From Methanocella sp. (GTDB lineage: Archaea; Thermoproteota; Bathyarchaeia; Bathyarchaeales; Bathycorpusculaceae): DNA of 38,595 nucleotides. Position numbers and translations under genes: made by a program. The stretch's first letter is position 1; the number at the start of each line of letters is the position of its first letter. Below are positions 24,441 through 38,595 of the stretch, piece after piece. The notes beneath the pieces are model-generated. The model ran no database searches. It was not told the DNA's origin and saw only the letters and a list, made by a program, of their open reading frames with translations. The DNA lies in the NCBI GenBank assembly GCA_050261115.1, contig JBLNCY010000012.1, positions 1-38,595 of the forward strand. Reading direction: 5' to 3'.

Positions 24441-24516
24441 CGTGCATATGATATGGTTAATTCGACAAGTATAAACATAACAATATTATAAACTCACTGA
24501 AAGGAGACCCTACTAT

Positions 24517-25050
24517 ATGCGATGCGAAGTTTGCGGAAGAAAAATTCATTCAGAACCCATACGAGCAAAAATCGAAGGTGCAACCCTAACTGTATGTGTT
24601 GAATGCTCCAAGCATGGTCAGATAGTCTACGAAGAGCCAGCAGCAACCGCGACTGCTCCGTCTAGCCCCACCAAATCCTATCAGCATATCCCAGTTATCG
24701 CTAGGAAACCCGCGGCGCCCACAGTCCAGATAAGTCAAGAAGTAGTTGAAGACTACGCAAACGTCATCCGCGTCGCCAGAGAAAAGCAGGGTCTCACCAT
24801 CGAGGAACTCGGCAAGAAAGTAGCTGAGCGCGCCTCATTACTCCGTCATATTGAAGCCAGTAGGGTCGCACCCAACAATCAACTGGCCAACCGACTTGAG
24901 CATGTGCTTAAAATCAAACTCTTGGTTCCGATCGCTGATGAAAAAGTTCCGGTGGCTCCAAAGAAGCCCTCGGAGGGCATGACTTTAGGCGACCTCATCG
25001 AGATGGCTAAAACAGATGAGGAGGCCAAACCCAAACGAAAGCAATCCTAG
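24517..25050 (+). CDS. mbf1: Archaeal multiprotein bridging factor 1
   Basis: CEVCG...CVEC Zn ribbon, HTH and TLGD motif. Confidence 0.93.
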   Translation: MRCEVCGRKIHSEPIRAKIEGATLTVCVECSKHGQIVYEEPAATATAPSSPTKSYQHIPVIARKPAAPTVQISQEVVEDYANVIRVAREKQGLTIEELGKKVAERASLLRHIEASRVAPNNQLANRLEHVLKIKLLVPIADEKVPVAPKKPSEGMTLGDLIEMAKTDEEAKPKRKQS

Positions 25051-26318
25051 TCCAGCGGCGATTGAACCGTGAAGAATCCAGCTTAGATGAACTCAAAAGC
25101 CTAGCGCAGTCTGCAGGCTACCAAATCGTAGGCACCCTAGAACAGACTCGCCGCCCAGACTCCCGCTTCCAAATCGGGGCAGGAAAAGTTGAGGAACTCG
25201 CAAAGATGGTGGCTGATTTGGGCGCCGACAAAGTCATCTTCGACAACCCGCTTCGGACACTACAGAATTATAACCTGGCCAAAGTCACCCGCGTAGAAGT
25301 CATCGACCGTTTCCAGCTGATTTTGGAGCTGTTTAGGCGACGCGCAACCACTACCGAAGCCCAACTGCAGATACAGCTAGCTGTGCTACAAAACGAGTTA
25401 AAGCACGCCAAAGAAAAAGTCCGCTTATCCAAAGGCAGCGAACAACCCGGATTCATGGGCTTAGGCGCCTACGAAGCTGACGTTTACCGCGACGCCATTA
25501 AACTGCAAGTTCAAACCATACGCAAAAAACTCGCCCGCATCCGCGAAAAACGCGTACTGCAACGAAAAAGACGCTTGGATCTGGGTTTCTCGACTGTTTC
25601 GCTGGCGGGTTACACAAGCGCAGGCAAAAGCACCCTCTTTAACGCCTTAACACAAGAGGAAGCCATGGTTGACAGAGCGCTCTTCACTACCCTCTCAACG
25701 CAGACCCGCATGATAGAATTCAGCAACCGCAAATTCCTCTTAACCGACACCGTGGGCTTCATCGACCGCCTACCCATTTCACTCATCGAAGCTTTCCACT
25801 CCACGCTAGAAGAAACCATCTTCGCTGACCTCATCGTACTCTTGGTTGACTTCTCAGAACCCCTACCCACCATTGAACGCAAGGTCCGAGTTTGCATGGA
25901 GACCATTGACAAGTTAGGCGCATCTGGCATTCCCATGATAACCGCCCTAAACAAAATCGACCGCATAAAGCCTCAGGAAAAAGAACCAAAGCTCGAAGCC
26001 CTCAAAAGCCAAATCAAAAATCCCCTCCTGCTCTCAGCAAAATGCGAAACCAACCTCGACGAACTCCGAAAGCGCATCCTTAAAATATTGGAGAACTACC
26101 AAGCTGCAGAATTCAGCATACCTCTTGTAGGGAATGTTATGCCGTTTATCTCTTGGGTGCACCAGAAAGCTGATATTCACAAAGAGGAATTCACAAACGA
26201 CTCCGTCAACGTAGCCTTAGAGGCTGACCCGTCCGTGATGGAGCAAATACGCAGAAAAGTGCAGGATCTTCATGGAAAATTCCAAACTAACTCCCCCGCA
26301 GAAGCCAACCCCAAGTAA
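25035..26318 (+). CDS. hflX: GTPase HflX (ACG start at 25035 proposed; TTG at 25062 is the alternative)
   Basis: GAGKVEE, GYTSAGKSTLFN, LFTTL, DTVGFI and NKID motifs. Confidence 0.95.
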   Translation, partial: TKAILVQRRLNREESSLDELKSLAQSAGYQIVGTLEQTRRPDSRFQIGAGKVEELAKMVADLGADKVIFDNPLRTLQNYNLAKVTRVEVIDRFQLILELFRRRATTTEAQLQIQLAVLQNELKHAKEKVRLSKGSEQPGFMGLGAYEADVYRDAIKLQVQTIRKKLARIREKRVLQRKRRLDLGFSTVSLAGYTSAGKSTLFNALTQEEAMVDRALFTTLSTQTRMIEFSNRKFLLTDTVGFIDRLPISLIEAFHSTLEETIFADLIVLLVDFSEPLPTIERKVRVCMETIDKLGASGIPMITALNKIDRIKPQEKEPKLEALKSQIKNPLLLSAKCETNLDELRKRILKILENYQAAEFSIPLVGNVMPFISWVHQKADIHKEEFTNDSVNVALEADPSVMEQIRRKVQDLHGKFQTNSPAEANPK

Positions 26319-26874
26319 TCAACCAAAAATCATTGTTCTACGTTGGGGGCACCGAGTTCAACGAGACGTCAGGTTAACTACCCATGTAGCCCTAACCGCC
26401 CGGGCGCTGTGCGCTTCAGGATTCATCCTAGCCGACACCACCGACCGTCATATCGAAGAAACCGTCACTAAGATCACTCAGGCATGGGGCGGCGACTTCC
26501 ACTTCGAAATGGGTACACCATGGAAGCAAGCCGTCCGCGACTGGAAAGCCAAAAACGGAATCATCGTGCACCTAACAGCATACGGCGAAAACATCCAAAC
26601 AAGCGATGTCATGGCACGGATAAAAGCCTCAGGACACGACGTGATGCTTCTAGTGGGGAGCCAGAAAGTGCCCGGCGAATTCTACTCTGAGGAAATCTCC
26701 GACTTTAACGTCGCTGTCGGGAACCAGCCACATTCGGAATGCTCTGCACTTGCCATCTTTTTAGACCGCTATTTTGAGGGGAAAGAACTCGCCAAACCCT
26801 TCAAGAAAGCCAAAATCACCATCACTCCAAGGGCGCGGGGTAAGATGATAGAAACGCACGATGGAAAAGAGTGA
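26272..26874 (+). CDS. trm56: tRNA (cytidine(56)-2'-O)-methyltransferase
   Basis: LRWGHR..RD.RLTTHVALTARA, HLTAYG, VGSQKVP and GNQPHSE motifs. Confidence 0.93.
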   Translation: MENSKLTPPQKPTPSNQPKIIVLRWGHRVQRDVRLTTHVALTARALCASGFILADTTDRHIEETVTKITQAWGGDFHFEMGTPWKQAVRDWKAKNGIIVHLTAYGENIQTSDVMARIKASGHDVMLLVGSQKVPGEFYSEEISDFNVAVGNQPHSECSALAIFLDRYFEGKELAKPFKKAKITITPRARGKMIETHDGKE

Positions 26875-26937
26875 AAGGTCAGAAGAGTTTTATCTGACCA
26901 TGATGCATAATTAAGGGTGCAAAAAGGAAATCCCAGT

Positions 26938-27450
26938 ATGTTATCAACAATTGATGATGCAACCCTCAATAAAGTTGCCCTAGCACTTGGCGACGAAGAT
27001 GCTGTCAGACTTATCGAGCACCTCAAGACAGTGGACGAAATCACCGATGATGAAATCGCAAACAAAACCGGTATCAGGTTAAACAGTGTCCGAAAAATCC
27101 TCTATAAACTCTATGACCACTCCCTAGTCAGCCTGCGCAGAACCCGCGATCCTAAGACAGGATGGTTCATTTTTCACTGGAAACTCCAACCTGACCAACT
27201 CGAAGGCTTCATTTTAAGCCAAAAACGGCGAGTTCTCGAAAAACTCAACGTACGACTCGAGTACGAGCGTACTCATGACTTCTACTACTGCGGCAGCGCC
27301 GAATGCAAACGCATCCCCTTCGAAGAAGCAGTTGAACTCGTTTTCCACTGCAGCTGCTGCGGCAAACCCTTGGTTCACTTCGAAAATGGCGTCATGATCG
27401 AGCGTCTGTCTGAGAAAGTTGAAATCCTTCGCAGGGAACTAGGCGAGTAA
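26938..27450 (+). CDS. tfe: Transcription factor E alpha
   Basis: TDDEIA...LNSVRKILYKLY, GWFIFHW and a Zn ribbon (YYC...C...FHCSCCG). Confidence 0.93.
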   Translation: MLSTIDDATLNKVALALGDEDAVRLIEHLKTVDEITDDEIANKTGIRLNSVRKILYKLYDHSLVSLRRTRDPKTGWFIFHWKLQPDQLEGFILSQKRRVLEKLNVRLEYERTHDFYYCGSAECKRIPFEEAVELVFHCSCCGKPLVHFENGVMIERLSEKVEILRRELGE

Positions 27451-27451
27451 A

Positions 27452-27979
27452 GTGGCGGAGCTTCCGAATAGGGAGCAAGCGATTCAAATTTTGAAACAGC
27501 AAAATTGTCCGCCCCAAGTAATCCAACACTGCCTAGCCGTAACAACGCTAGCCCTAGAAATCGCGGCTAAACTCCAAACCAGAGGCATCAAAATCAGTTT
27601 GCCACTGGTTGAAGCAGGCGGCTTACTCCACGATTTAGGCCGAGCAAAAAGCCACGAAGTTAACCACGGATTGATTGGTGTGCAAATGGGCAAAACACTT
27701 GGACTCCCAGATTCCCTTCTTGACATTATCAAGCGACATGTCGGCGCAGGCATAACCCACCAAGAAGCCCAATGGCTCAAATGGCCGCAAGACAACTATA
27801 TCCCCACCACAATCGAAGAGAAAGTCGTTTGCTATGCGGATAAACGGATAGACAACGACCGGGTGGTTCCCATAGATGAGGAAATCCGCAAGCTACAACA
27901 ACGTGGATATCCAGAGGCGGCAGAAAGAGTTAGAAGGCTGCATGTGGAGATAACTCAACTGTTAGGCGAACAACCATGA
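27452..27979 (+). CDS. HD-domain phosphohydrolase (TIGR00295-like)
   Basis: HC..V, LLHDLGR, HVGAGI and EEKVVCYADK motifs. Confidence 0.88.
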   Translation: MAELPNREQAIQILKQQNCPPQVIQHCLAVTTLALEIAAKLQTRGIKISLPLVEAGGLLHDLGRAKSHEVNHGLIGVQMGKTLGLPDSLLDIIKRHVGAGITHQEAQWLKWPQDNYIPTTIEEKVVCYADKRIDNDRVVPIDEEIRKLQQRGYPEAAERVRRLHVEITQLLGEQP

Positions 27980-28731
27980 CCCAAATGACCCTATTTGTAA
28001 GGGCCTTCAACAGCGGCCAACTCAAACAAATCGACGATTTACTGCAAAGTCAATTTGAAGATTTAGAAGTAAAATCCCTTCTTGAAGTCGATCCTACCAG
28101 CAAGTGGGTGCATCTCTCTCTTGAGGGTGAAGATGAGGCAGTTGCTGCCTCGTTTGCTCGCAAAAAAATCGGAACGGTACCCAAGAACTGGGATGCGGTG
28201 GAAGTCGACGCCGAGTTGAAGGGTTATGTTTCCAAGGTTGACGAGAGCAGAGGTCAATTGCTAGTTGATATAGGCGTTTTTCAGCCAAAGGTTAGTCTGG
28301 CTGTAGTCTCGCTTGCTACTCTCCGTGCACAGTTTGCGGCGGGTAAAGAATCCACCGCTAAAGCTATTGCTGAGGCGTATGGTATTGCGGAGGGGTTACC
28401 CGTTACTGTTAGGGTGACTGAGAAGGGTGATTCTTTTAAGGCTGAGTTGGCGTCTGGGCTGGTGGAGAAGCTTAAGGGGTGGCAGCAGTCGCTTCTTGAT
28501 AGGCTTATTATTCTAAGGGCTAACAAAGACTTGGTTGATGCCACCTTGGAGCGTACGCATTTGACTCGTGATGTGATTGAGGTGGAGCAGTTAGGTTTCT
28601 TTGAGTTTGCGTTGACGTGTAAGTTGGGTACAGAGGCACGTGGTTTGATTCCAAGGGTTGGCCGGTATATGCGTAATGCCGTGTTTGTTGTGTTTAGTGC
28701 CAAGAAAAGTATCGATTTTTTGGGCCAGTAG
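27976..28731 (+). CDS. DUF2110-like protein
   Basis: GEDE.VA, VDIG, RDVIEVEQLG and CKLGT...GLIPRVG. Conserved neighbour of tfe. Confidence 0.7.
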   Translation: MTQMTLFVRAFNSGQLKQIDDLLQSQFEDLEVKSLLEVDPTSKWVHLSLEGEDEAVAASFARKKIGTVPKNWDAVEVDAELKGYVSKVDESRGQLLVDIGVFQPKVSLAVVSLATLRAQFAAGKESTAKAIAEAYGIAEGLPVTVRVTEKGDSFKAELASGLVEKLKGWQQSLLDRLIILRANKDLVDATLERTHLTRDVIEVEQLGFFEFALTCKLGTEARGLIPRVGRYMRNAVFVVFSAKKSIDFLGQ

Positions 28732-28820
28732 GGATTAAGCTTATAAAACGGATCATAAATACTTAAACAATCCATTATCCAGAAACGGATAAAAGTTGGA
28801 AGGGAGAGGGAAAACAAGCA

Positions 28821-28976
28821 ATGACTGATAAAGATGGTAAACGAAAGTACCGTATAGACATCGGAGCCTACGGCAGCATAGGCGTAGAAGCACCCACAAA
28901 AGAAGAATGCCTAGAACTCTTCAAAGAAGTCACCCAAACAAAAAGAAACTCCAGAATAGACGAAGCCATCCGATAA
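28821..28976 (+). CDS. Small hypothetical protein (51 aa), not in the ORF track
   Basis: MTDKDGKRKYRIDIGAYGSIGVEAPTKEECLELFKEVTQTKRNSRIDEAIR. Purine-rich GGAGAGGG upstream and AT-rich promoter-like sequence before that. Confidence 0.6.
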   Translation: MTDKDGKRKYRIDIGAYGSIGVEAPTKEECLELFKEVTQTKRNSRIDEAIR

Positions 28977-29038
28977 AAAAACAACTGAGCCGCAAACCGT
29001 CAGCCAGCCGCCAAAAAAGGCAGCGATTGCCGCTGCGG

Positions 29039-29200
29039 CTACAGAACATCATGTTCCTCTTTACAATGCGCATTGTAGTCATCGCGGTTATCGTAAACCT
29101 GCTGATCCAGCGGGCACCGCAACTTTTTATCATCGGTAATCTCAGGATCAGGAATGGTCACACGGGGCGCAGTCCTTCTTAAATCCTCAGCCTCAGCCAA
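29039..29200 (-). CDS. Small C2H2-like zinc-finger protein (53 aa), not in the ORF track
   Basis: AAGGAGGTGA SD, then TTG. MAEAEDLRRTAPRVTIPDPEITDDKKLRCPLDQQVYDNRDDYNAHCKEEHDVL. Confidence 0.7.
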   Translation of the reverse strand: MAEAEDLRRTAPRVTIPDPEITDDKKLRCPLDQQVYDNRDDYNAHCKEEHDVL

Positions 29201-29464
29201 AACACATTCACCTCCTTAAAACTGCAACACAATAAGCGATCTAGCATCGGCTTGAATTGTTAATTAAAATATGTGACTACACAAGGGTAACAACCAACCG
29301 TTAAAAAAAGAAAGAAAGGGCGGTTAAGCGCTGCTTTGGCGGCTTGGGTTTTGCGGAAGTAGACCAAGATAACTACCCTGAAAAAGACGCTGAAAAAGAG
29401 GACCTATGCATTTTAGGTTTTTAGTATTTAGCATGTTAAAAAATGGGGGGAGGATAACGCCGAG

Positions 29465-29824
29465 CTAAAAGCTCAGCGCGCCTAAGCCGATACCGATGCC
29501 AATGCCTACTAACGCCAGAATAAAGACGATGATCACAAAGACAATTACAGCAATGAGTGCAATTGCGAATGCTTTGATCCAGCCGCAGTCAAAGAAGTGC
29601 TTGATCAATGCCAGCCAGACGAAGAACATGATTATTGACGATATTATTCCGCCGATTAACCAGCCGACGATGGAGCCTATGACGATGCCAAGCACTACGA
29701 TCCAGATGGCGTCAGTGAATTTGGCGTTTTGTTTACCTGCGATTGCTCTGCCAACAAGCCAAAGAATGGGGGCGATGATGATTATTGCTATTACGATTTG
29801 TATTAAGAGGCCAACTAGGTCCAA
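29465..29824 (-). CDS. Hypothetical 4-TM membrane protein
   Basis: 119 aa, very hydrophobic, with an IKHFFDCGWIKA loop. Confidence 0.75.
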   Translation of the reverse strand: MDLVGLLIQIVIAIIIIAPILWLVGRAIAGKQNAKFTDAIWIVVLGIVIGSIVGWLIGGIISSIIMFFVWLALIKHFFDCGWIKAFAIALIAVIVFVIIVFILALVGIGIGIGLGALSF

Positions 29825-29951
29825 AATTTATCCCTAAACTGTATTTGGAGCTTTGGGTTTTTAAATAAATCGCTTGTGCATTTAGCGGTGCCCACAAAAA
29901 AAGGGTAAACTAGGAAAAGGGTTGGGCTTAATGGACCTATCTAAACGTGGT

Positions 29952-30662
29952 TTATTGGGTTGGGTAGAATGTTGCTGACACAGAAATGCTATGTAGTGTC
30001 GTAGGTGAAGTCGGCGCCGAAAAGCTGTGTGCTAAAACATAAAAGGTGTATGTTTGGCCTCCAGCAACATTGTAAAAGCCTTGTATAGTTGGGTTGAAGT
30101 AAATTGCGGAATCTGATGATCCGCTAAGGTAAGTATCAAGTGGTCCGTTTGCAACTACATAGTCATAGTTAAGAGTACGCCCTAATCCGAAGCTAAAGCC
30201 CGAATAGTTACCGTTGCATCTGCCAAAGGCGTTTGCAATAAGATGAACCGTCCCATTCGACGGCGCTGTAAAGGTAACATTACAGACGTTTTTTATGTTT
30301 CCAGTTAGTTCTATGGAACCGGGGTAAGCATAGGATTGATTGTAGTATAGAAAGCCTGAGCCAGGTATTCCTTGGGGTCCGGTTGCGCCTGTGTCTCCTT
30401 TTGGTCCCTGTATGCCTTGTGCACCGGTATCACCTTTAGGTCCTGTTGCGCCAGTTAAACCAGTTGGCCCTGTTGCGCCGGTTGCTCCAGTGGCTCCTGC
30501 GTCGCCAGTATCTCCCTTATCGCCTTTGGGACCTTGCGTTCCGGTAACTATTGTAATCCCTGCGGAAACCCCTCCAGCTATGACAATAACTGCAACAAGC
30601 ATTATTACCATCATTATTTTACTAACTACAATCTTGTCTGACATCTTGGTTTCCTTAAGCAT
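29952..30662 (-). CDS. Membrane-anchored collagen-like protein
   Basis: N-terminal TM helix, 20 uninterrupted G-X-Y triplets (30363-30542) and a beta-rich C-terminal domain. Confidence 0.85.
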
Positions 30663-30695
30663 CTAATCAAGCGGTTGGTTTATAGTTATTAACCT

Positions 30696-31637
30696 TTGCT
30701 TATGCTTACGGTCATAGAGCTTGGATTAGTAAAAGGGTGGTGGGCCGAGACGGACTTGAACCATCGACCTTTGGCTCGTAAAGCCTTGAAGGAACCTACG
30801 GTTCCCTCGAACCTTCCCTTCAACGCTAACGAGTTCACTGCATGGGTTCAATCTAGATATTCGCATAGCTACAGCCAAACGATACTTTGCTACACTAGGC
30901 GGTATTACCGCTTTGTGTATGCTAATGATTTACAGCCGATAGATGCTTTGCCTGATTCGATTAAGAGTAATGCTATAAAGAGTCTTGTAGTGCTCAGTAA
31001 GTACCTGGGTTGCTATACCGACTTCCATGAAAGGCTGAAACGTTTTGACATAAAGCTTCCACGACCTGATGCTTTGCATGCTTTCCTTCGGATATTCCAG
31101 TCAAGCAACGCTGATACTATCCAGTGGTATAACAATACTCTATCCCATCTACGTGATAACGAGAGACTACTGGCCCGTTTCATGCTACTATCGGGTTTGA
31201 GAGTTAATGAAGCAGTACAGAGTTTTAACAAAGTTACTGAGTTGTCCCAAAATAACAGACTTAGTGAGTACTATGACCCGTCCCTTCATTGCTTATGCCA
31301 TTTCAAGTATCCTAAAACCTTCATACGGAGAACAAAATGTTGCTATCTTACGTTTGTCAGTCCAGAATTCCTGAACGTGGTAGGGTCAAGTAGTCCAGCC
31401 AATTACAATGCACTATGTATGAGACTTAAGCGCCAAGGCATCCCTGTAAGACTTAACCAATTGCGTGACTACTTCGGTACTTACTTGCTTCAACATGGCC
31501 TATTAGAGCAAGAAGTCAACCTACTGCAAGGTAGACTCCCGATGTCAATCTTTGTGCGGCATTACTGGAGCCCAAAGCTGTCAGAATTGGGCGATAAGGT
31601 ACTTTCAGCGCTTGCTGATATAGACAGGCGTCCTTAA
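30696..31637 (+). CDS. int: SSV1-type tyrosine integrase, C-terminal fragment int(C)
   Basis: SGLRVNE (R), RRTK (K), QLRDYF (R), QGR and RHYW (Y). The antisense tRNA half encodes WWAETDLNHRPLARKA at its N-terminus. Confidence 0.88.
   Translation: MLMLTVIELGLVKGWWAETDLNHRPLARKALKEPTVPSNLPFNANEFTAWVQSRYSHSYSQTILCYTRRYYRFVYANDLQPIDALPDSIKSNAIKSLVVLSKYLGCYTDFHERLKRFDIKLPRPDALHAFLRIFQSSNADTIQWYNNTLSHLRDNERLLARFMLLSGLRVNEAVQSFNKVTELSQNNRLSEYYDPSLHCLCHFKYPKTFIRRTKCCYLTFVSPEFLNVVGSSSPANYNALCMRLKRQGIPVRLNQLRDYFGTYLLQHGLLEQEVNLLQGRLPMSIFVRHYWSPKLSELGDKVLSALADIDRRP
30738..30785 (-). repeat. att site: 3' half of tRNA-Val(TAC) with CCA
   Basis: The minus strand reads GGC-TT-TAC-GA-GCC-AA-AGGTC-GATGG-TTCAAGT-CCGTC-TCGGCCC-A-CCA, i.e. 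anticodon loop, T-arm and 3' acceptor strand. There is no D-arm or 5' acceptor strand next to it. Confidence 0.85.
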
Positions 31638-31965
31638 CAGTGCCATAAGCTTTAACGATAGTAATGAATCGGATGAAAGCGTTTTCACCAATGATAATTG
31701 AATCGTCGGTGTCTAAGACAGTGAATAGTCCGTTGTCTTGATACAGCACTATAAGACGATAACTAGTTATTCAGCAAGCAAATCATCTTACACAATAGCC
31801 TTGAACTGTAGCCCCTATCTTCTGTAGTCCACCTTACGCCTCTTATTCTATCTAGTAGGCGTATCGCTGTCTAGTATCCGTTAATAAATATCTAAACCGA
31901 AGAAATGCTGTCTTGCCAAAGTTTTATTTAGCTGGTTAGCCAGACCAGAGCTTGGGAAGCAATCC

Positions 31966-32274
31966 ATGAGTTATAAAGCCCAAGATTCCAGAACGAGCAA
32001 ACCATTAGTTAGGAAACGTCCAGCAGCCACAATGACGGTAAGTTCTTTACTTCTAGAAGAATTGGATGATTTAAAACGTAGAACTGGCTTGTCAAGGTCT
32101 CAGATAATTGAAAAAACTATAGCTTTTGGACTAGAGCGGTTTAGGAAGGAAGCTGTTCTTGAACAAAAGGCTAGCTTGGAACAGAAGAAGGACGAATCGG
32201 TCGAAGCTAGATATATGAGAGAAGTCTTGTTTGGAAGTCGCTTCGACCAAAACTGGCAGATGAATGACAGCTAA
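31966..32274 (+). CDS. Ribbon-helix-helix (CopG-like) DNA-binding protein
   Basis: TMTVSSLLLEELDDLKRRTGLSRSQIIEK strand-helix-helix pattern. Confidence 0.75.
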   Translation: MSYKAQDSRTSKPLVRKRPAATMTVSSLLLEELDDLKRRTGLSRSQIIEKTIAFGLERFRKEAVLEQKASLEQKKDESVEARYMREVLFGSRFDQNWQMNDS

Positions 32275-32438
32275 AGCCAAAAGCGAGGTATAATACTACA
32301 AGTCTTATCCGACAATTTACCGAAAATCAGAAACAAAACCCAAATTGCGCCTAGAAAGAGCATTGTAATACAGTAAAACAATAGGTGCCCAATCTATCAC
32401 TCAGCAACTTTACACGGTAAATAGGTAGGCAGACGGGC

Positions 32439-33308
32439 TTATGGATGTGTCCTATGCAAAGAGCTGGACGCACGGTGGTAATTTCGAACGAGTTCTTGAA
32501 CGTCAACCTTCCAATCTGTGGCATTTCCCTCATACTGGTTATGACTTGATAGAATAATATAGGGACGGGTCTCTTTATGGACTAAAATGGATTGTCTTGC
32601 CTCTGCTTCTTTTCGAACTATTGAATAAGGGTCAAGCAATTCTTTAAGTTCTTCAGCGGTTTCTTTTCCAGTGAAGTTATAGGATTCAACTCTATTTTTC
32701 CAACCAACGTTGTGGTCGATAAGCAACTTAATCGGTAATCCTAACACTCTATTCAATATATAGCGATGGTTATAGGTAAGATAGTTATTCCTGGCTCTGG
32801 CTTGAGCTGCGTCCTCAAGAAGCCAATTGACATCTATATCGTGAATCGTTAACATTGGGTCATGGAAGACTAATTGGAATTCAATGCTGCTTGGTTCGCC
32901 AATAACGAGTTCTTGGTTCAAAAACTCTCGCAATGGCGGCTCTAGTTGCTCTAGAAATCGACAATATTCTTCGGTTCGTCCACTATCGTAAGCAGTCTCA
33001 AAGGAAGCTTGAAATCCGTCGAAAAAGACTTTTGCTAACTCCATAAGTTTGGTTCCGTTAGCAAGAAACACTCTCCCCTTCCTTGTTATCGACAGTTCTA
33101 GCGCTTGCCCTCTTCTCCGTGTTTTTGGGGCTAAATTAATGATAAGACGCTTACTAAGCAAAACAGGAACTAGCTTTGCAACCACATTTTTATGCACCTG
33201 GGCTTCTACCACTAATTCACGACGGCTCAAATTCTGTTTTAGTAAGGCTTTCAACATAGAAAGAATTTCTCTATTTTCCTTTTGCTTTTGAAAGTCCCAA
33301 TAAGGCAT
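32439..33308 (-). CDS. Winged-helix protein with unknown C-terminal domain (289 aa)
   Basis: ATG at 33308 (MPYWDFQ). LSRRELV...HKNVVAKLVPVLLSKRLI...LSITRKG wHTH pattern. The longer track ORF overlaps the opposite-strand gene. Confidence 0.65.
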   Translation of the reverse strand: MPYWDFQKQKENREILSMLKALLKQNLSRRELVVEAQVHKNVVAKLVPVLLSKRLIINLAPKTRRRGQALELSITRKGRVFLANGTKLMELAKVFFDGFQASFETAYDSGRTEEYCRFLEQLEPPLREFLNQELVIGEPSSIEFQLVFHDPMLTIHDIDVNWLLEDAAQARARNNYLTYNHRYILNRVLGLPIKLLIDHNVGWKNRVESYNFTGKETAEELKELLDPYSIVRKEAEARQSILVHKETRPYIILSSHNQYEGNATDWKVDVQELVRNYHRASSSLHRTHP

Positions 33309-33386
33309 AACGATAACCAAAAAAAGTGACCCCAAGTGTACCCATGATATCGAACGACCTGATAATGATGACGGTGGTAGAAGAAG

Positions 33387-33632
33387 ATGAACTCGGATAC
33401 CACCAAAGCCAGAAACTCGGAGTCTGGCACAATAAAAACCCCTGAAGTTTCCCAAGGGGTAAACACCGAGACGGGAATCAACATCGAATGCAAAATCTGC
33501 GGCTGGGTTTGGCTCTACAAGGGCAAGCACACAGTGTTTGTCAGTTGCCCAAACTGCTTTAGGAAAAACAGGCTACCAGATGCTGGTCAGCTAGACGTCG
33601 AAGTTAAGGCAAACGAGGGGGTGGAACCATAG
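33387..33632 (+). CDS. Zinc-ribbon protein
   Basis: CKICGWVWLYKG...CPNC. Confidence 0.7.
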   Translation: MNSDTTKARNSESGTIKTPEVSQGVNTETGINIECKICGWVWLYKGKHTVFVSCPNCFRKNRLPDAGQLDVEVKANEGVEP

Positions 33633-33961
33633 CAACAAACGCTGAGGATATCATTGCCACAATAAAGCGTACCATTGACGACTTCTATGCCAATAGGTCA
33701 GATAGCGGTACAAACGTTACATTCGAACCTCAAACACAGCAGTATGATATTAAAGAGTTAGAAACAATAGCAAAACAACTACGCTATACAGCTTACAACA
33801 GCGGAAGCGGTTCATGGACAGGCGCCAATAGCAGGGCAGGAGGAAAGTTACTCGACTACTTAAGACAAAAGGGTGGTCGGGCAATAATCGGTGAATACAA
33901 GTACGTACTTAGTCCTGACGGAAACGTAATTCGCCGCTATCCAGTAGCTCCAAAAGCATAG
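33629..33961 (+). CDS. Hypothetical 110-aa protein with probable ATA start, not in the ORF track
   Basis: Open frame (I/M)ATNAEDIIATIKR...GEYKYVLSPDGNVIRRYPVAPKA fills the gap between two genes. GAGGGGGTGG SD upstream, and the ATA overlaps the upstream TAG. Confidence 0.7.
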   Translation: MATNAEDIIATIKRTIDDFYANRSDSGTNVTFEPQTQQYDIKELETIAKQLRYTAYNSGSGSWTGANSRAGGKLLDYLRQKGGRAIIGEYKYVLSPDGNVIRRYPVAPKA

Positions 33962-33972
33962 CGGAGGGAATC

Positions 33973-34479
33973 ATGCGGTTGCAAACAAAAAATGAGTACG
34001 TGGGGAGACTACTTGAAACCCCCATTCTTTCCTCTCTGGATATACTAAAGAAAAACCGCTGTATTGTACAGTACTGGGCAAATTACCCAAAGCCGCATAA
34101 TGGCGACTTCGATGCAGTGGTGGAGATGCACGAAGGCACTTATCTAGACTTTGAAGCTATGAACTTAAACCCTATTTACCAATATGATGAAACCTCATGG
34201 CGAGTACGAAATCTAACTAACCAGCTCGACGATGCAAGAAAAACCTTTGGGACTGTAAGCAAGTTGGTGTTAATCTCTACGGATGCTGTTACCGCAAAAT
34301 CAACGTGGCTAAAAGAGCATGACATAGAGTTGCTAAACATAGGTAAACAGGTCAGGGTTATGGACAAAGCTGAGTACGATGAGTTTGTTACATTTCTAGC
34401 CCAAGAACTATCATCGCTAATTAGAAAAATAGGAAAAAATGCCTATATGGGCCAGCTAAACAGGCGGGTTATACCATGA
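33973..34479 (+). CDS. PD-(D/E)XK nuclease-fold-like protein
   Basis: GRLLE...GDFDAVV...DFEAMN, with a GGAGGG SD upstream. Confidence 0.5.
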   Translation: MRLQTKNEYVGRLLETPILSSLDILKKNRCIVQYWANYPKPHNGDFDAVVEMHEGTYLDFEAMNLNPIYQYDETSWRVRNLTNQLDDARKTFGTVSKLVLISTDAVTAKSTWLKEHDIELLNIGKQVRVMDKAEYDEFVTFLAQELSSLIRKIGKNAYMGQLNRRVIP

Positions 34480-34841
34480 AATCACAGAAAATGCAAACAA
34501 TCAAGCAACTCGAAGCCAAAATTACCAAGCAAATAGACGATACTTATGGCTTCTGCATAACATATGGATATGGCATGAGTTGGAGCGATTATTGGTCAAT
34601 GTTTACGGTATGGGACAAGGATATTCAACTAATCTGCCAAGCTAACGGGATAACCATAACTGACTTAGATGACACTTTAGTACAAGTACATCAGAACGGA
34701 TATGGCAAACTCTATATGTTCAAAGATGACCACAGCAAACTGGTCGGACTACGCAAGAAAGAGATAGAGCCAGACAGGAATAGGGGACAAAATGACCAGC
34801 CAAACCATGAAGGTACGCAAAATCGGGGTTGGGAGAGCTAA
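34476..34841 (+). CDS. Hypothetical protein
   Basis: 121 aa with an ATGA overlap with the upstream gene. Confidence 0.65.
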   Translation: MKSQKMQTIKQLEAKITKQIDDTYGFCITYGYGMSWSDYWSMFTVWDKDIQLICQANGITITDLDDTLVQVHQNGYGKLYMFKDDHSKLVGLRKKEIEPDRNRGQNDQPNHEGTQNRGWES

Positions 34842-35164
34842 TGAGACGCAAGACTCAAGCCCGTCAAGAAGCATACCATCATTTTATCGAATATCTTTAT
34901 AGGAATTTTCGCAAGGAAATGAAAGGGATACTATTACCCCTAAGCGGGAAACCATCAGTCATGTTATGGGTGGGTAAACAAAAAAGGCTCGAAGAAACGG
35001 TTCTCACTTTACTAGCGGAACTCTTAGCATATCGAGAGCTCTCTGGGGCGCCGCCTTCTGAAGAAATTAACGATGACATGGACAACTACACTGTTATGGA
35101 AAAGATGCTTGACGAATTGGTCGCTTACCGAACGCTATTTGGCACTTGGAATGATGTTGCCTAA
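34841..35164 (+). CDS. Hypothetical helical protein
   Basis: TAATG overlap with the upstream stop. T-rich tract after its own stop. Confidence 0.6.
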   Translation: MRRKTQARQEAYHHFIEYLYRNFRKEMKGILLPLSGKPSVMLWVGKQKRLEETVLTLLAELLAYRELSGAPPSEEINDDMDNYTVMEKMLDELVAYRTLFGTWNDVA

Positions 35165-35256
35165 CCTTCTTTTTATGAGTTAACCAAACAGGTCGGCGAT
35201 GTATTCGTTTTTTGAATGAAAAAGTTATATCTGGAGAGCACTAAATCACACAGGGA

Positions 35257-38067
35257 ATGGCTAACCTATCTGAGTATTTGACCCGTAGAGACAAAATTGA
35301 TAAAATGCTTGAGAAGTCGGGCTGGACAATAAAAGACAGGAACAAAGTCTTCGAGGAAGTTGATACAAAGCAGTCCGATTTTAAATCAGGGAAATACAAA
35401 ACAGTTTCCCAGACTCTCAAAGACCCAGATGAACACGCCTATGCAGACTATCTACTGCTTGACGCCAAAGGTATGCCTCTAGCTGTCATAGAAGCTAAGA
35501 AAACCTCAAAAGACCCAATCATCGGTCAAAGACAAGCCGAAGGCTATGTTGATGATATCCAAAAACAAACAGGACAACCCGTCTTCATCTTCCTAACTAA
35601 CGGTTATGAGATTTGGTTCTGGAACAAACCGTTCGAAAATCCCAGAATAGTCAAAGGCTTCCACGACAGAAAATCTCTGGAGAGAATTAAATTCCAGAAT
35701 AATTCTAGGAAAGAATTCTGCGATGTACCCATAAAAAGGGAAATCGTCGATAGGCCGTATCAAATTGAAGCTGTAAAACGGGTTGAAGAGGGAATAGACA
35801 AAGGAAAACGTAAATTCCTCTTGGTTCAAGCCACAGGGACAGGCAAAACCAGAGTTTCAATGGCGTTAATCGATGTTTTGATGCGAGCAAACCGAGCCGA
35901 AAGGGTTCTTTTTATAGCTGACAGGAAGGAGCTTCGTGACCAAGCTTATGGCGATTTAGGGTTCAAAACTTTCTTCCCAAACACGTCAAAAACAAAGATT
36001 TACTCTGGCGATGTCCAAAAAGAGCCCCGATTGTATGCTTCCACAATTCAAACACTAATGGAGTGTTACCAGCAGTTTAACCCTGGAGACTTTGATGTTA
36101 TCATTTCCGATGAAGCACACAGGTCAATCTATAACAAATGGAAAGATGTTTTTACATACTTTGATGCCATTGAAATCGGCTTGACTGCCACTCCCTCAGA
36201 CCTCATCGAACGTGATACCTTTAGATTTTTTGAATGCGAAGGTGGACAGCCAACATTTCTTTATACTTACGACCAAGCAATCAAAGAGAAGTACTTGGTT
36301 GATTTCCAAGTCTACCACGCTCAGACGCACTTCCAAATCGAAGGTATAAAACCTGAGGATATCCCTGCTAGTGTCAAAGCTAAAGTTTTAGAAGAAACAG
36401 GGACAGTTGAAGAAGAACTCAACTTTGAAGGGACTGATATAGAAAAAAAGGTTGCAGTCATTGGAACCAACGAAGCGATAGTTAAAGAATTCATGGATAA
36501 CTACATCGAAGACCGCACAGGGACTCTGCCAGCAAAAACAATCATTTTTGCGGTCTCAAAACAACACGCTAAGCGCCTATGGGAAGCTTTCGAAAAGCTT
36601 TATCCACAATATAAAGGCAAACTCTGTAAGATAATAACCTCAGACAATCCGAGAGCTAAACAATTAATCGATGAGTTCAAAAAAGAGGACTATCCAAAAA
36701 TCGCAATCTCAGTAGACATGCTAGACACAGGCATCGATGTCCCAGAAGTCTGCAATCTCGTCTTCGCTAAACCAGTTTTCTCAAAAATAAAATTCTGGCA
36801 AATGATTGGCCGTGGAACAAGAAGCGATGCAACCTGCAAAACTGAACATAGAAAATGGCTTCCGAATGGCAAAAAAGAATACTTCCTAATCTTAGATTTC
36901 TGGAAGAACTTTGAATGGTTCAAAATGAACCCAGAAGGCAAAGAAGTCAAGCCAGCGGAAGCAGTTACAACCAAGATTTTCATGACAAGGCTTTACCAGC
37001 TTGAGTTCTTCCAGAAATATCAGGACAACCGTGCTGAGCTTATAAAGGCTAAGGTCGCAGACACCATCAAATCTTTGCCTGCGGAGTCCATCTCTATTCA
37101 AGAGCATATGCGAGAAATCGAGAAGGCGCTCCTCCCTAATTTCTACAATTCTATAGGTTTGCAACCAATTGACTATTTGAAAACTAAAATCGCTCCCCTC
37201 ATGAAGTACATGCAAGATGTTAACGTTAATGAAGCATACTTCATTCTGAAAACTGAGCAATTGAGCTTAGCTATTCTTCACAATGACAATTTAGAGATTG
37301 AACGGCTCAAGAATGCTATCGGAGACGACCTCCAGAGATTACCATTAACACTTAATGATGTGAAAGTAAAGCGGAAACTGCTGAATCAAGTGCTTAACAA
37401 CTCATTCTGGGATAGAATCACCTATGAAGACGCTCAAATGATAGGTGAAGAATTCGCTCCATTAATGAAGTATAGGGATGAGAACCCTAGAACAGTCATA
37501 ACCTTAGATATTGATGATGTCATCCAAGAATCGGGAATCATAGAGTTCGGTCCATTGCCTTCACAGGAGAATGTTAACACTTATCTTCAGAAAGTTCAAA
37601 AGCGAATAACTGAATTGGCCGAGAACCACCCAACCATACTAAAAATTAAAAATAATGAAGTTCTGACTGAAGAAGACCTCAAGAATCTAGAAAATACTCT
37701 CAACGGTCCAGACCTGTACATAACTGAGGAAGTCCTACAGAAAGCCTTCTCACAAAACAAAGGGACGTTGGTCCAATTTATCAAAAACGTGTTAGGTATG
37801 TATGCTTTCCCTGACCCTAAGAAAAGGGTTGAGGATGCATTCAAAACCTTCATGGTAGAGAAGAATTACTTGAACGCTGACCAGGTAAACTTTCTAAGGA
37901 CAGTTCAAACCGTTTTTATGAAGAAGCGCCATATCGACTACGAGGACTTCTACGAGCTACCTTTCACTAACTTTGGTTTTACTATGCCCCTTGCAGATGA
38001 AGATTTAAAGGAAGTCGTGCAACTATGTGCATCCTTAGAGAGGGAAATCAAGGTTGCTAGCCCCTGA
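35257..38067 (+). CDS. hsdR: Type I restriction enzyme R subunit (EcoEI/EcoAI-like)
   Basis: ADYLL...VIEAKK nuclease, ATGTGKT, DEAHRS, GLTATP, LDTGIDVP and QMIGRGTR. Confidence 0.93.
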   Translation: MANLSEYLTRRDKIDKMLEKSGWTIKDRNKVFEEVDTKQSDFKSGKYKTVSQTLKDPDEHAYADYLLLDAKGMPLAVIEAKKTSKDPIIGQRQAEGYVDDIQKQTGQPVFIFLTNGYEIWFWNKPFENPRIVKGFHDRKSLERIKFQNNSRKEFCDVPIKREIVDRPYQIEAVKRVEEGIDKGKRKFLLVQATGTGKTRVSMALIDVLMRANRAERVLFIADRKELRDQAYGDLGFKTFFPNTSKTKIYSGDVQKEPRLYASTIQTLMECYQQFNPGDFDVIISDEAHRSIYNKWKDVFTYFDAIEIGLTATPSDLIERDTFRFFECEGGQPTFLYTYDQAIKEKYLVDFQVYHAQTHFQIEGIKPEDIPASVKAKVLEETGTVEEELNFEGTDIEKKVAVIGTNEAIVKEFMDNYIEDRTGTLPAKTIIFAVSKQHAKRLWEAFEKLYPQYKGKLCKIITSDNPRAKQLIDEFKKEDYPKIAISVDMLDTGIDVPEVCNLVFAKPVFSKIKFWQMIGRGTRSDATCKTEHRKWLPNGKKEYFLILDFWKNFEWFKMNPEGKEVKPAEAVTTKIFMTRLYQLEFFQKYQDNRAELIKAKVADTIKSLPAESISIQEHMREIEKALLPNFYNSIGLQPIDYLKTKIAPLMKYMQDVNVNEAYFILKTEQLSLAILHNDNLEIERLKNAIGDDLQRLPLTLNDVKVKRKLLNQVLNNSFWDRITYEDAQMIGEEFAPLMKYRDENPRTVITLDIDDVIQESGIIEFGPLPSQENVNTYLQKVQKRITELAENHPTILKIKNNEVLTEEDLKNLENTLNGPDLYITEEVLQKAFSQNKGTLVQFIKNVLGMYAFPDPKKRVEDAFKTFMVEKNYLNADQVNFLRTVQTVFMKKRHIDYEDFYELPFTNFGFTMPLADEDLKEVVQLCASLEREIKVASP

Positions 38068-38595
38068 ACTTAAAGCTGACGTAAACAAACTTTGGGATAA
38101 ATTCTGGTCTGGTGGAATCGCTAACCCGCTTGTTGCAATAGAACAGATGTCTTACCTAATATTCATGAAGCGACTTGAAGACCTGGACGCCGTCCATGTT
38201 AAGAGAGCTTCAGCAAGAAAAGAACCATTCAAATCCATTTTCGAAGGTCATGATGACTGTCGTTGGTCTCATTGGAAGCATTATAAAGATGATGAGATGC
38301 TAAAGCATGTCTCGCTTGTAGTTTTTCCTTTTATAAAAGAGCTACACAATGGCGATGAGACGCTCTACTCACAGTACATGAAAGACGCCATGTTTGTTAT
38401 CCCTAAACCAAGTTTGCTCCAAGATGCAGTCGCTATAATCGATGATATGAATATAACGGATAGGAACCAAGACACTCAGGGCGACATCTACGAGTACCTT
38501 CTTAACCAACTAAGAACTTCTGGTTTGAATGGTCAATTTAGAACTCCCAGACACATTATCAGAATGATGGTTGACCTGATTGACCCAGACATTGG
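38054..38595 (+). CDS. hsdM: Type I R-M methyltransferase M subunit (3'-truncated), not in the ORF track
   Basis: TTG at 38054: MLAPELKADVNKLWDKFWSGGIANPLVAIEQMSYLIFMKRLED...GDIYEYLL...GQFRTPRHIIRMMV. Confidence 0.92.
   Translation, partial: MLAPELKADVNKLWDKFWSGGIANPLVAIEQMSYLIFMKRLEDLDAVHVKRASARKEPFKSIFEGHDDCRWSHWKHYKDDEMLKHVSLVVFPFIKELHNGDETLYSQYMKDAMFVIPKPSLLQDAVAIIDDMNITDRNQDTQGDIYEYLLNQLRTSGLNGQFRTPRHIIRMMVDLIDPDI

Follow-up and report, generated by a model that had tools for sequence, protein, structure and literature searches.

We describe here a mobile element of ~14 kb that is integrated in the sole tRNA-Val(TAC) gene of its host, a reading to which we give a probability of about 0.9. 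The window, i.e., the whole stretch of 38,595 nucleotides that was analyzed and the entire contig C12 of its assembly, holds the left junction, and the right-hand partner is contig C61 of the same assembly. The element is real, was acquired recently, and belongs among the cryptic integrated elements that encode a "suicidal" integrase. It would have entered the tRNA-Val(TAC) gene by site-specific recombination via its own SSV-type ("suicidal") tyrosine integrase. Because attP sits within the integrase gene, insertion parted int(N) from int(C), and the element swapped the 3' part of the tRNA for its own identical copy, so that the tRNA remains whole. An earlier note on the window had proposed an SSV1-type split-integrase element at tRNA-Val(TAC), with int(N) and the intact tRNA-Val beyond the right end of the window; exact att repeats, int(C) in the window, and both the tRNA and an int(N) that reads into att on C61 now bear this out.

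The att repeat and the two integrase halves

The features that define the junctions are as follows.

30737..30785, minus strand: attL, the displaced 3' part of tRNA-Val(TAC) (positions 31-78 plus 1 nt), 49/49 identity to C61:16070-16118
30786..31637, plus strand: int(C), the catalytic fragment of the split tyrosine integrase, 283 codons, its frame running on from attL
C61:16330-16118: int(N), 71 codons, in frame with int(C) and running into attR

The attL copy begins 5 nt ahead of the anticodon, ends 1 nt beyond the CCA, and is identical at 49/49 positions to C61:16118-16070 (blastn, E 1e-21), which makes it an exact att repeat in the range of ~40 to 50 bp that overlaps a tRNA gene. Its second copy is contained in the intact tRNA-Val(TAC) at C61:16040-16117 (ARAGORN), the only intact one of the genome; no tRNA was called by ARAGORN in the window, as is expected of a half gene. 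A 25-nt piece of att found no chance match in 200 shuffles of the C61 locus, and three further elements of the genus have the inner boundary at the same position to within 1 nt (alignment A2). Within the ORF 30696-31637, the att codons are read in frame as WWAETDLNHRPLARKA. The antisense 3' half of tRNA-Val that had been noticed in frame at the head of the integrase, with a length of 48 bp (30738-30785), is thus real, with the exact identity being one base longer, and the search for a second copy that completes the tRNA led to the exact copy in the intact gene on C61.

When int(N) and int(C) are joined, one frame passes through att, and both halves are colinear with unsplit homologues, which places the recombination site within the integrase ORF. 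The int(N) ORF is 132 aa long, and its first 71 codons, taken together with the 16 codons of att, can be aligned to the N-terminal domain of these homologues, which are proteins of 390 to 438 aa with a CxxC N-terminal domain and with other tRNA-coded peptides where the att peptide sits here. Neither half contains a stop or a frameshift. The ORF 30696-31637 matches PF16795, "Archaeal phage integrase," by a small margin (28.9 bits at a cut-off of 27, and 29.1 bits in the whole-genome search), and int(C) matches the integrase family PHROG 5127 (E 3.7e-12). The part of a 2021 review that treats these enzymes assigns PF16795 (Phage_integr_3) to the SSV, pTN3-like, and pT26-2-like families as their domain.

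An AlphaFold model of int(C) (pLDDT 83.8) is predicted to have the catalytic-domain fold of the SSV1 integrase. Its best structural match is the catalytic domain of that enzyme, 3vcf_A (Z 14.1, rmsd 3.5, 159/160 residues aligned), followed by 3uxu (Z 13.5) and 4dks (Z 13.2), and the catalytic domains of other tyrosine recombinases reach Z scores of 8 to 10 (9 to 10 for the P2, HP1, and lambda integrases); Foldseek E values are no better than 1e-3 to 4e-2. When the integrase alignment was used as a profile against PDB sequences, no recombinase was returned (best E 0.055, amphiphysin), and the tie to the SSV1 integrase is made only through the comparison of folds. In alignment A1, R139, R227, R250, and Y260 are invariant, with R139, R227, and Y260 in the proper order. 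A nearly invariant N224 stands three residues before R227, giving box II the form N-x-x-R, an equivalence that is drawn from motif order only, where SSV1-type enzymes have K-x-x-R in the R...KxxR...Y signature of She et al. 2004, as quoted in the section of PMC8371274 on these enzymes.

The empty site and the age of the insertion

The four metagenome runs examined, drawn from a set of 16, come from four studies, and in all of them contigs cover the host flank from 24000 (or 30064/30395) to 30784-30785 and then diverge. Past 30785 they continue as AACGTCCTA(ACCA), which is tRNA sequence (its 5' half, antisense) in place of int(C), and hence represent the empty site that the earlier note had proposed to look for in relatives. 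Up to 30785, the flank is matched at >=99% by contigs of these four other metagenomes, and the long X2 and X5 contigs differ at 11 to 15 positions across 6.8 kb of it. The remainder, 30818-38595, has no cover in the four runs examined, which is not counted as evidence of absence. Conspecific populations without the island thus exist in other metagenomes, and since they are 99% identical in the flank, the insertion is young. A recent insertion is also what we infer from the open reading frames of both integrase halves and the still-identical repeats.

Around this site, synteny between tRNA-Val and the DUF2110 gene of the host is kept in 10 of the 13 loci compared, and tRNA-Val stands without an adjacent integrase in several congeneric genomes. 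The host had been described as a probable Bathyarchaeon, a view supported by a Bathyarchaeota MAG locus (L055) in which a host-flank gene is 71% identical over 399 bp and the tRNA 91% identical. Near-identical host flanks are present in digester, bioreactor, soil, and sludge metagenomes.

In SSV-type integrases, the intact enzyme alone catalyzes both integration and excision. After its integrase gene has been split, the element would be incapable of excising itself and would need an intact integrase in trans. This raises the alternative, which we hold to be somewhat unlikely, that the island is a fixed fossil that entered by the mechanism described but has lost its mobility and is kept only through a useful or addictive restriction-modification (R-M) system. 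No intact enzyme can come from this locus with its split gene, the only other member of the integrase family in the genome (on C43, 43% identical) uses tRNA-Thr, integrase copies in several relatives have decayed through stops or frameshifts, and a circular attP junction was seen in no read or contig of the data, a set that lies outside the source-sample reads. The identical repeats, the two undamaged halves, and the youth of the insertion relative to conspecifics lacking the island speak against a fossil.

Extent and cargo of the island

The cargo begins to the right of int(C) and continues on C61.

31966..32274, plus strand: RHH (CopG-like) protein, 102 aa (PF01402 RHH_1, E 2e-5)
32439..33320, minus strand: putative HTH transcription regulator, 293 aa, no Pfam match
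33387..33632, plus strand: 81-aa protein with two CxxC pairs, possible Zn ribbon (PF13717, weak, E 0.009, below cut-off)
33973..35164, plus strand: three overlapping co-oriented orphan ORFs (168, 121, and 111 aa), no Pfam or NCBIfam match
35257..38067, plus strand: hsdR, type I restriction subunit, 936 aa (ResIII E 3e-40, EcoEI_R_C, HSDR_N)
38054..38595, plus strand: N-terminal part of hsdM, ending at the contig end (HsdM_N; N6_Mtase profile positions 2-44)
C61:22236-21367, minus strand: C-terminal part of hsdM, resuming after a gap of roughly 8 to 30 codons

The PADLOC profile MTase_I PDLC03021 is divided between the two hsdM pieces, with positions 3-183 in the C12 piece (E 1e-50) and 214-490 in the C61 piece (E 1e-99), and 5ybb_A is the top PDB chain for each of them. 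Apart from one marginal match on C64 (20.1 bits), the genome contains no other N6_Mtase piece. Because these complementary parts lie at contig ends and are the sole such pieces bar the marginal one, C12 and C61 form one island of ~14 kb. We infer their junction, which is not sequenced; no overlap between the two contig ends was found, and the gap between them takes in the part of hsdM with motif I. With hsdR matching PADLOC REase_I PDLC03047 (E 5e-152) and hsdS matching Specificity_I (E 9e-66), all three subunits of a type I R-M system are found together, and hsdR-hsdM-hsdS with an overlapping 277-aa gene would form a complete-looking operon, the motif-I part of hsdM being in the gap. Such a system may act both in defense and as an addiction module that favors retention of the element. 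Further genes of the island encode an HD-CE protein with a small wHTH protein and a 372-aa product.

It is very improbable that C12 and C61 were brought together from different strains or organisms by assembly or binning, with the common 49 bp being merely conserved tRNA sequence: the assembly is a MAG of 66 contigs with an estimated contamination of 2.2%, and tRNA sequences are conserved across species, but the copy in the window is no tRNA gene but half a tRNA fused in frame to an integrase, int(N) on C61 keeps the same frame, the hsdM halves at the contig ends are complementary, and low G+C is common to both island parts. The G+C content falls at both att sites from 48-49% to 38-42%, with values of 41.6% for the C12 part of the island and 37.9% for the C61 part, where the flanks have 49.1% and 47.7%.

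The slight disparity in G+C between the two island parts would also fit a composite of two stacked or recombined elements, with the present int(N) and int(C) derived from different genes, a scenario that is compatible with the main junction reading and that we consider unlikely. A tRNA-proximal unit of ~2.8 kb would then comprise int(N) and the HD-CE, wHTH, and 372-aa genes, and a distal unit of ~11 kb would comprise an int(N) remnant, the 277-aa gene, hsdSMR, the regulators, and int(C). The remnant is a 41-codon int(N)-like pseudogene in the island (C61:18898-19023; L001 16599-16724), oriented as int(N) and 45% identical over 40 aa with its cysteines lost, and it suggests that several insertions have contributed to a mosaic island. 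However, the C61 locus has no further att copy within 3 mismatches, including the vicinity of this pseudogene, and there is no second int(C) fragment in the island; the outer repeats are identical at 49/49 positions, and the two present integrase halves are open in one frame.

The genes to the right of the integrase agree with the earlier note, which saw only orphan, regulatory, or defense cargo there. A longer ORF of 363 aa opens at the GTG at 33530, and the true start of the HTH regulator probably lies elsewhere. An Atlas feature search placed this regulator with archaeal HTH_5/HVO_A0261_N regulator clusters (score 0.92, a lead only); this lead and a PRTase-like fold (TM 0.35-0.37) were too weak for naming functions. 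The three orphan ORFs have only marginal matches in PHROGs and PADLOC (E 0.008-0.01), and 11 of the 12 island proteins are without a match in NCBIfam, the other having a sub-threshold match to Lrs14. Cargo homologues were found neither in the 65 loci compared nor elsewhere in the genome (tblastn, all cargo proteins). Above family cut-offs, the island ORFs yielded only the integrase, RHH, R-M subunits, and HD-CE, with a few marginal matches besides. As the earlier note had remarked of the window, no capsid or replication gene is recognizable, nor is a conjugation gene, among the island ORFs in Pfam, PHROGs, NCBIfam, and PADLOC scans, and the PHROGs scan of 12 island ORFs returned no viral structural family and hence no hallmark of the Fuselloviridae or of a provirus. 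An integrase and att repeats in the company of no recognized capsid, packaging, conjugation, or casposase gene are what define a cryptic integrated element, a class assignment to be read in light of the orphans, which might still conceal such functions.

A family of integrases and its sister elements

The integrase belongs to a large family that is found mainly in Bathyarchaeia and has hundreds of metagenomic members. The tRNA-Val locus is an insertion hotspot: in 6 of 24 congeneric genomes, a second partial copy of tRNA-Val lies 1.2 to 6.5 kb from the full gene, and in three of those six an int(C) homologue is located between the copies. An all-against-all BLASTP comparison of 12 elements found only integrase pieces in common, plus one pair of secreted proteins, and the 49 ORFs of 11 sister elements contained no replication or capsid family (Pfam). 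Among IMG/VR contigs, 0 of 26 pattern matches were confirmed as relatives by a scan with the integrase alignment. The suggestion that this may be an undescribed element family can be upheld only in part. Elements of this kind are in print for Thaumarchaeota, in the part of PMC6563490 that describes them, and what is seen here is rather an integrase family with interchangeable cargo, the 12 compared elements having no common cargo gene.

In part of the family, it is the 5' half of a tRNA, in sense orientation, that is used. Among enzymes that are 50 to 59% identical, the tRNA-Val(TAC) segment within the gene is the sense 5' half in some, as in the enzyme of locus L055, and the antisense 3' half in others, and the same pair of geometries occurs for tRNA-Thr(GGT). 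In both att geometries, the anticodon arm adjoins int(C), and as the anticodon stem-loop is the only segment common to both, it is there that strand exchange would take place. The conflict genes of the family comprise the type I R-M system of this island and TIR, PIN-VapB, and STAND ATPase genes in sister elements. We tentatively raise the possibility that Bathyarchaeia hold a large undescribed clade of suicidal integrases that flips about a pseudo-symmetric anticodon stem-loop core and ferries replicon-less cassettes of mostly conflict genes. If so, these would be integrase-only defense shuttles, able to leave the chromosome only when an intact relative acts in trans.

Comparison with known systems

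Self-splitting integrases work by a well-known mechanism that was first characterized in hyperthermophiles. A 2021 review, in the part devoted to them, still presents such integrases as a trait of hyperthermophilic archaea. The closest parallels in architecture are offered by the pT26-2 family, as portrayed in the relevant sections of Badel et al. 2020 (PMC7253208). There, too, the integrase gene contains attP and is divided into int(N) and int(C) on integration; att, 51 bp long in that family and 49 bp here, is a tRNA 3' part that starts just upstream of the anticodon and ends a few nucleotides beyond the gene; the integrase is antiparallel to the tRNA; and related copies are widespread and often decayed. 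The hosts of that family are hyperthermophilic Thermococcales and Archaeoglobales in contrast to the Bathyarchaeon here, and according to the same sections its sites are all tRNA 3' parts, whereas some members of the present family use a sense 5' half. The present element also differs in that neither a plasmid backbone nor a replication gene is recognized in it and in the CxxC N-terminal domain of its integrase. With the type I integrases of SSV1 and SSV2 (Fuselloviridae), the enzyme shares PF16795, the catalytic fold, and a gene split at a tRNA-derived att of 40 to 50 bp; it differs in its low identity (12 to 15% in structural alignments, with no sequence-level match in the PDB) and in the lack of fusellovirus structural genes in the island (PHROGs).

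In content, the element is similar to the cryptic integrated elements of Thaumarchaeota and in particular to NitEve-E3, which, in the account of them given in Krupovic et al. 2019 (PMC6563490), combine a split SSV1-like integrase with the absence of viral hallmarks and a size of <20 kb. The commonest cargo, according to that account, includes subunits of type I R-M systems as well as RHH and Zn-ribbon proteins. NitEve-E3, compared by description only, differs in that it belongs to another host class and in that an empty site in conspecifics is documented here. As these Thaumarchaeota elements with a split SSV-like integrase were already described in that part of the paper, the element is of a kind already known. 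A literature search of main texts on split integrases in Bathyarchaeia found no paper; the only paper containing both "Bathyarchaeia" and "suicidal integrase" concerns, by its listing, viruses of Thermococcales.

The locus provides a fully documented case in the Bathyarchaeia, an abundant and barely cultured group, in that the break in composition and the empty site are shown along with the two junctions. Its attP and the tRNA-Val attB are a concrete pair of substrates for locating the cuts made by such integrases, and the element is an instance of a type I R-M system moving between strains on such a vehicle. For annotation, it follows that where a start-less "integrase" ORF of ~290 aa stands by a half tRNA in a MAG of the Bathyarchaeia, it is an int(C) fragment and marks the border of an island. 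On the host side of the border described here, 30717-30736 resembles the 3' end of the int(N) coding sequence in C61 and in genome G014, and we have considered that it may be the remnant of an older insertion.

Both ends of the element

The DNA to the right of position 30785 belongs to a cryptic integrated element that was acquired recently, a defence island whose split integrase is of the SSV type. At its left end, the ORF at 30696-31637 (+), which contains int(C), starts in noncoding DNA beside a divergent collagen-repeat gene and translates 30738-30785 as the peptide WWAETDLNHRPLARKA. The reverse complement of 30737-30785 (attL) covers the part of a tRNA with anticodon TAC that begins at the 5′ strand of the anticodon stem, continues across the T arm and the acceptor stem, and reaches CCA. 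In Pfam, the ORF has a match to PF16795, "Archaeal phage integrase," at 28.9 bits (cutoff, 27), and among PHROGs it has one to the PHROG 5127 integrase (E, 3.7e-12). ARAGORN called no tRNA in the window, as expected where only half a gene is present. The earlier note had taken this tRNA-Val half, in frame at the start of an integrase, to be an insertion junction; the observation is confirmed, and its interpretation is supported.

Since the window is the complete contig C12 of an assembly of 66 contigs (2.15 Mb), the right end of the element was sought on the other contigs. The junction had a single other blastn match in the genome, at C61:16118-16070 (49/49 identical; E, 1e-21), where the 49 bp make up positions 31 to 78 and one further base of an intact tRNA-Val(TAC) (C61:16040-16117), the sole one that ARAGORN found in the assembly. 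Immediately downstream of this tRNA gene, on the opposite strand, lies a 132-codon ORF from C61:16330, int(N), which has 71 codons followed by the repeat in the exact frame of the window ORF (…KMEK-WWAETDLNHRPLARKA-…) and then continues across the 5′ half of the tRNA gene. The second att copy, the intact tRNA-Val, and the int(N) fragment that had been expected beyond the right end of the window are thus all located on contig C61.

The integrase and its unsplit homologues

A protein database search with the window ORF as the query gave 312 proteins at an E value of ≤1e-3 among 1325 candidates. Among the 120 matches listed, most have 229 to 340 residues and begin at or near a tRNA-coded peptide, and six have 381 to 438 residues and run from an N-terminal domain through a tRNA-coded peptide to the catalytic part. 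Conserved in the N-terminal domain of these six are a CxxC motif and the stretch R-x-R-H-Y…K-P-x-F-x-Y-H. In an alignment of the fragments with the long homologues, int(N) matches this domain, the window ORF matches the remainder, and the att peptide is common to both. The joined gene would, as predicted from these lengths, encode 71+16+283 = 370 residues.

A profile of 20 family members found no recombinase among PDB sequences. By VIA-align, the AlphaFold model of int(C) (mean pLDDT, 83.8) is nearest to the SSV1 integrase catalytic domain 3vcf_A (Z, 14.1; rmsd, 3.5; 159/160 residues aligned), followed by 3uxu (Z, 13.5), 4dks (Z, 13.2), archaeal XerA 4a8e (Z, 12.2 over both domains), and the P2, HP1, and lambda catalytic domains (Z, 8.8 to 9.9); Foldseek placed the same entries on top with weak E values. 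Invariant in the family alignment are, in order, R139 (GLRxxE), K184, R227 (N-E-L-R-D), R250 (G-R), and Y260 (R-H-Y-W), which, judged by motif order, is the tyrosine recombinase pattern. In box II, the family has N where SSV1-type integrases, according to the available text of PMC8371274, have K.

A probable single island across two contigs

Contig C12 ends inside the N-terminal part of hsdM (HsdM_N plus N6_Mtase profile positions 2 to 44), and C61 ends inside the C-terminal part of hsdM, on the other strand (N6_Mtase positions 73 to 308). The best PADLOC model of both pieces is PDLC03021 (positions 3 to 183, E of 1e-50, on C12; positions 214 to 490, E of 1e-99, on C61), and the best PDB chain of both is 5ybb_A; the only other N6_Mtase match in the genome is a marginal 20-bit match on C64. 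Since the contig ends do not overlap and the motif-I region of hsdM is absent, we infer a gap of about 8 to 30 codons. Given this presumed join, the island comprises window positions 30786-38595 (7,810 bp; 41.6% G+C) and C61:16119-22238 (6,120 bp; 37.9% G+C), about 14 kb in total, with adjoining host DNA at 49.1% and 47.7% and the whole genome at 47.4%. Its genes are as follows.

Genes of the island, in order from attL to int(N)
int(C): window, first gene after attL
RHH protein: after int(C)
Putative HTH regulator: 293 aa, opposite strand (Atlas lead, 0.92)
81-aa protein: two CxxC pairs
Three orphans: between the 81-aa protein and hsdR
hsdR: PADLOC REase_I, E 5e-152
hsdM: one piece at the end of C12 and one at the end of C61, PADLOC PDLC03021
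hsdS: PADLOC Specificity_I, E 9e-66
277-aa orphan: C61:19329-20162 (17030-17863 of L001, the fetched stretch of C61), minus strand, 4-bp overlap with the hsdS stop, co-oriented
int(N)-like pseudogene: C61:18898-19023 (L001 16599-16724), minus strand, 41 codons, 45% identical to int(N) residues 1 to 40
372-aa orphan: opposite strand, weak PRTase-like fold lead
102-aa wHTH protein: 4-bp overlap with the HD-CE gene
HD-CE protein: 264 aa, PF24391, E 8e-17
int(N): C61, last gene, 71 codons before att

No capsid, packaging, conjugation, or replication families were detected among the island genes. The 277-aa orphan, whose sole match is a marginal one to PADLOC PDC-S32 (E, 0.004), has the look of a fourth hsd operon gene because of its overlap and orientation. 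In the int(N)-like pseudogene, both CxxC cysteines are replaced, and no att remnant adjoins it; its presence hints that the island is a mosaic.

Empty sites and relatives at tRNA-Val

About 0.3 to 0.4 of the sampled words of window positions 30200-31400 are present in 16 public metagenome runs. Four of these, from four studies (anaerobic digester, bioreactor, soil, and activated sludge), were compared with 24000-38595, and in 4/4 the contigs match the host flank as far as 30783-30785, including a 9,182-nt contig in X2 with 11 differences across 24000-30785, a 9,183-nt contig in X5 with 15 differences, and shorter contigs in X1 and X14. Beyond 30785, they continue as AACGTCCTA (X2, X5, and X14) or AACGTCCTAACCA (X1), which is the antisense tRNA-Val 5′ half as on C61 (…AAAGCC|AACGTCCTAACCAGG) and not the window's TTGAAGGAA. 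Near-identical organisms therefore have the host flank and an intact tRNA with nothing between them, so that the empty sites suggested as a check in the earlier note are found in all four runs.

All 41 genomes searched have tRNA-Val(TAC). A second, partial copy (query positions 31/35 to 78) lies 1.2 to 6.5 kb from the full gene in 6/24 congeners, and in three of these six (G014, G020, and G011), an int(C) homologue with 40 to 43% identity lies between the copies. In 10 of the 13 loci retrieved, no more than a few kilobases separate the host gene DUF2110 from tRNA-Val, and 3 kb of flank aligns at 70% in the closed genome G014. That genome carries a 6.4-kb element at the identical site and in the same orientation (G014:C1:784198-790745; locus L033, 10199-16746), with a frameshifted int(C), two ∼500-aa orphan ORFs, and none of the cargo of the present island.

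Next to attL, in the host DNA, a 20-bp stretch (30717-30736) resembles the last int(N) codons on C61 and in G014 (3/7 residues past att by tblastn; about 20/25 nucleotides against the G014 attR). It is present in the empty-site contigs too and could be an extended attB or the remnant of an older insertion. A digester contig in X1 matches the tRNA part from 30717 on, preceded by GAATTTCGTAACGGTCAAAAAGCCCAAAAT, which is similar to the flank of the G014 element next to int(N) and indicates that a different family element occupies tRNA-Val in the digester community. The interval from the conserved DUF2110 block to attL, 29200-30736 (44% G+C, below the host average), encodes a 119-aa membrane protein, shared only by G014 and G015, and a collagen-repeat (G-x-y) protein of 236 aa whose N-terminal segment is hydrophobic. 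As the DUF2110-to-tRNA-Val spacing varies among other congeners (2.6 to 5.9 kb), this stretch may be older island material.

Geometry of att

The 130 nucleotides upstream of 20 distinct int(C) loci were compared with a library of 103 tRNAs. Six loci have a tRNA 3′ part (positions ∼31-34 to the end) in antisense (four Val-TAC, one Thr-GGT, and one Gly-TCC), and nine have a 5′ part (position 1 to ∼35-43) in sense (three or four Val-TAC, two Thr-GGT, two Arg-TCT, and one Ser-GCT). Three loci have an entire tRNA directly against int(C), and no tRNA was found in two, one of them the element on contig C43, whose tRNA is further upstream. In 15/15 half-tRNA loci, the anticodon arm adjoins int(C), and four independent elements have their inner att boundary (…CGTAAAGC(C)|) in the same place, give or take one base. 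What the two tRNA-Val(TAC) geometries have in common is GGCTTTACGAGCC alone, the anticodon stem-loop, which suggests that strand exchange would occur there. We infer that the family switched between the halves of one tRNA gene by flipping about the pseudo-symmetric anticodon core.

Gene content of the family and known systems

Cargo protein homologues were found neither in the 65 fetched loci nor elsewhere in the genome. BLASTP among 12 elements (1.2 to 14 kb) linked only integrase pieces and one pair of secreted proteins. A Pfam run on 49 ORFs of 11 sister elements matched a CAP12/Pycsar-type TIR protein, a PIN-VapB pair, an archaeal STAND-like ATPase, and GNAT, DUF6602, HTH, and RHH proteins, the remainder being orphans; no replication or capsid family was among the matches. 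No relatives were found in IMG/VR. The conserved unit is the integrase with its att and not an element backbone.

Split ("suicidal") PF16795 integrases are described, in the available portions of PMC8371274, from Sulfolobales viruses and plasmids and from the pTN3 and pT26-2 families of Thermococcales, Archaeoglobales, and Methanosarcinales, and its conclusions link them to hyperthermophiles. In excerpts of Badel et al. (2020), pT26-2-type sites are a tRNA 3′ part antiparallel to int, a geometry that the present element shares; it differs in its new host class and in having no recognizable replicon. Krupovic et al. (2019; PMC6563490) report one cryptic integrated element of Thaumarchaeota, NitEve-E3, in which the SSV1-like integrase is split and viral genes are absent, and they name type I R-M subunits as some of the most frequent cargo in elements of this kind. 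The accessible parts of surveys of Bathyarchaeia viruses (PMC10848311) and archaeal proviruses (PMC11705971) mention integrases but no split ones, and a full-text literature search found no published description of this integrase family.

Distribution of the family

At an E value of ≤1e-10, the integrase family is present in 12/41 related genomes, 10 of the 12 in the genus of the window and including its own genome; several copies in related genomes have stops or frameshifts. Among 21 named genome loci with the family, 19 are Bathyarchaeota, Bathyarchaeia, or Bathyarchaeales, one is "miscellaneous Crenarchaeota group-6," and one is Anstonellales. The proposal that the host is a probable Bathyarchaeon gains support from one family member's locus in a Bathyarchaeota MAG (L055), where a gene from the window's host flank has a match of 71% over 399 bp.

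The same genome has a second element, of 2.6 kb, at C43:11058-13717 (locus L066, 2059-4718). There, an intact tRNA-Thr(GGT) is followed by an exact repeat of 47 bp of its 3′ part (11088-11134 = 13671-13717). The integrase ORF (339 aa; 43% identity to int(C)) leads out of the tRNA in the sense direction, with a CxxC…CxxC stretch past att, and of the cargo only one protein is sizeable, a secreted or membrane protein of 345 aa. The tRNA-Leu/tRNA-Thr/int arrangement on C43 recurs in a named Bathyarchaeota chromosome (L054). A third PF16795 match, weak and below the cutoff (22.3 bits), is located at C15:7829-7990 (minus), at the end of an 8-kb contig beginning with tRNA-Ala(CGC), and may be another integrase fragment cut by assembly.
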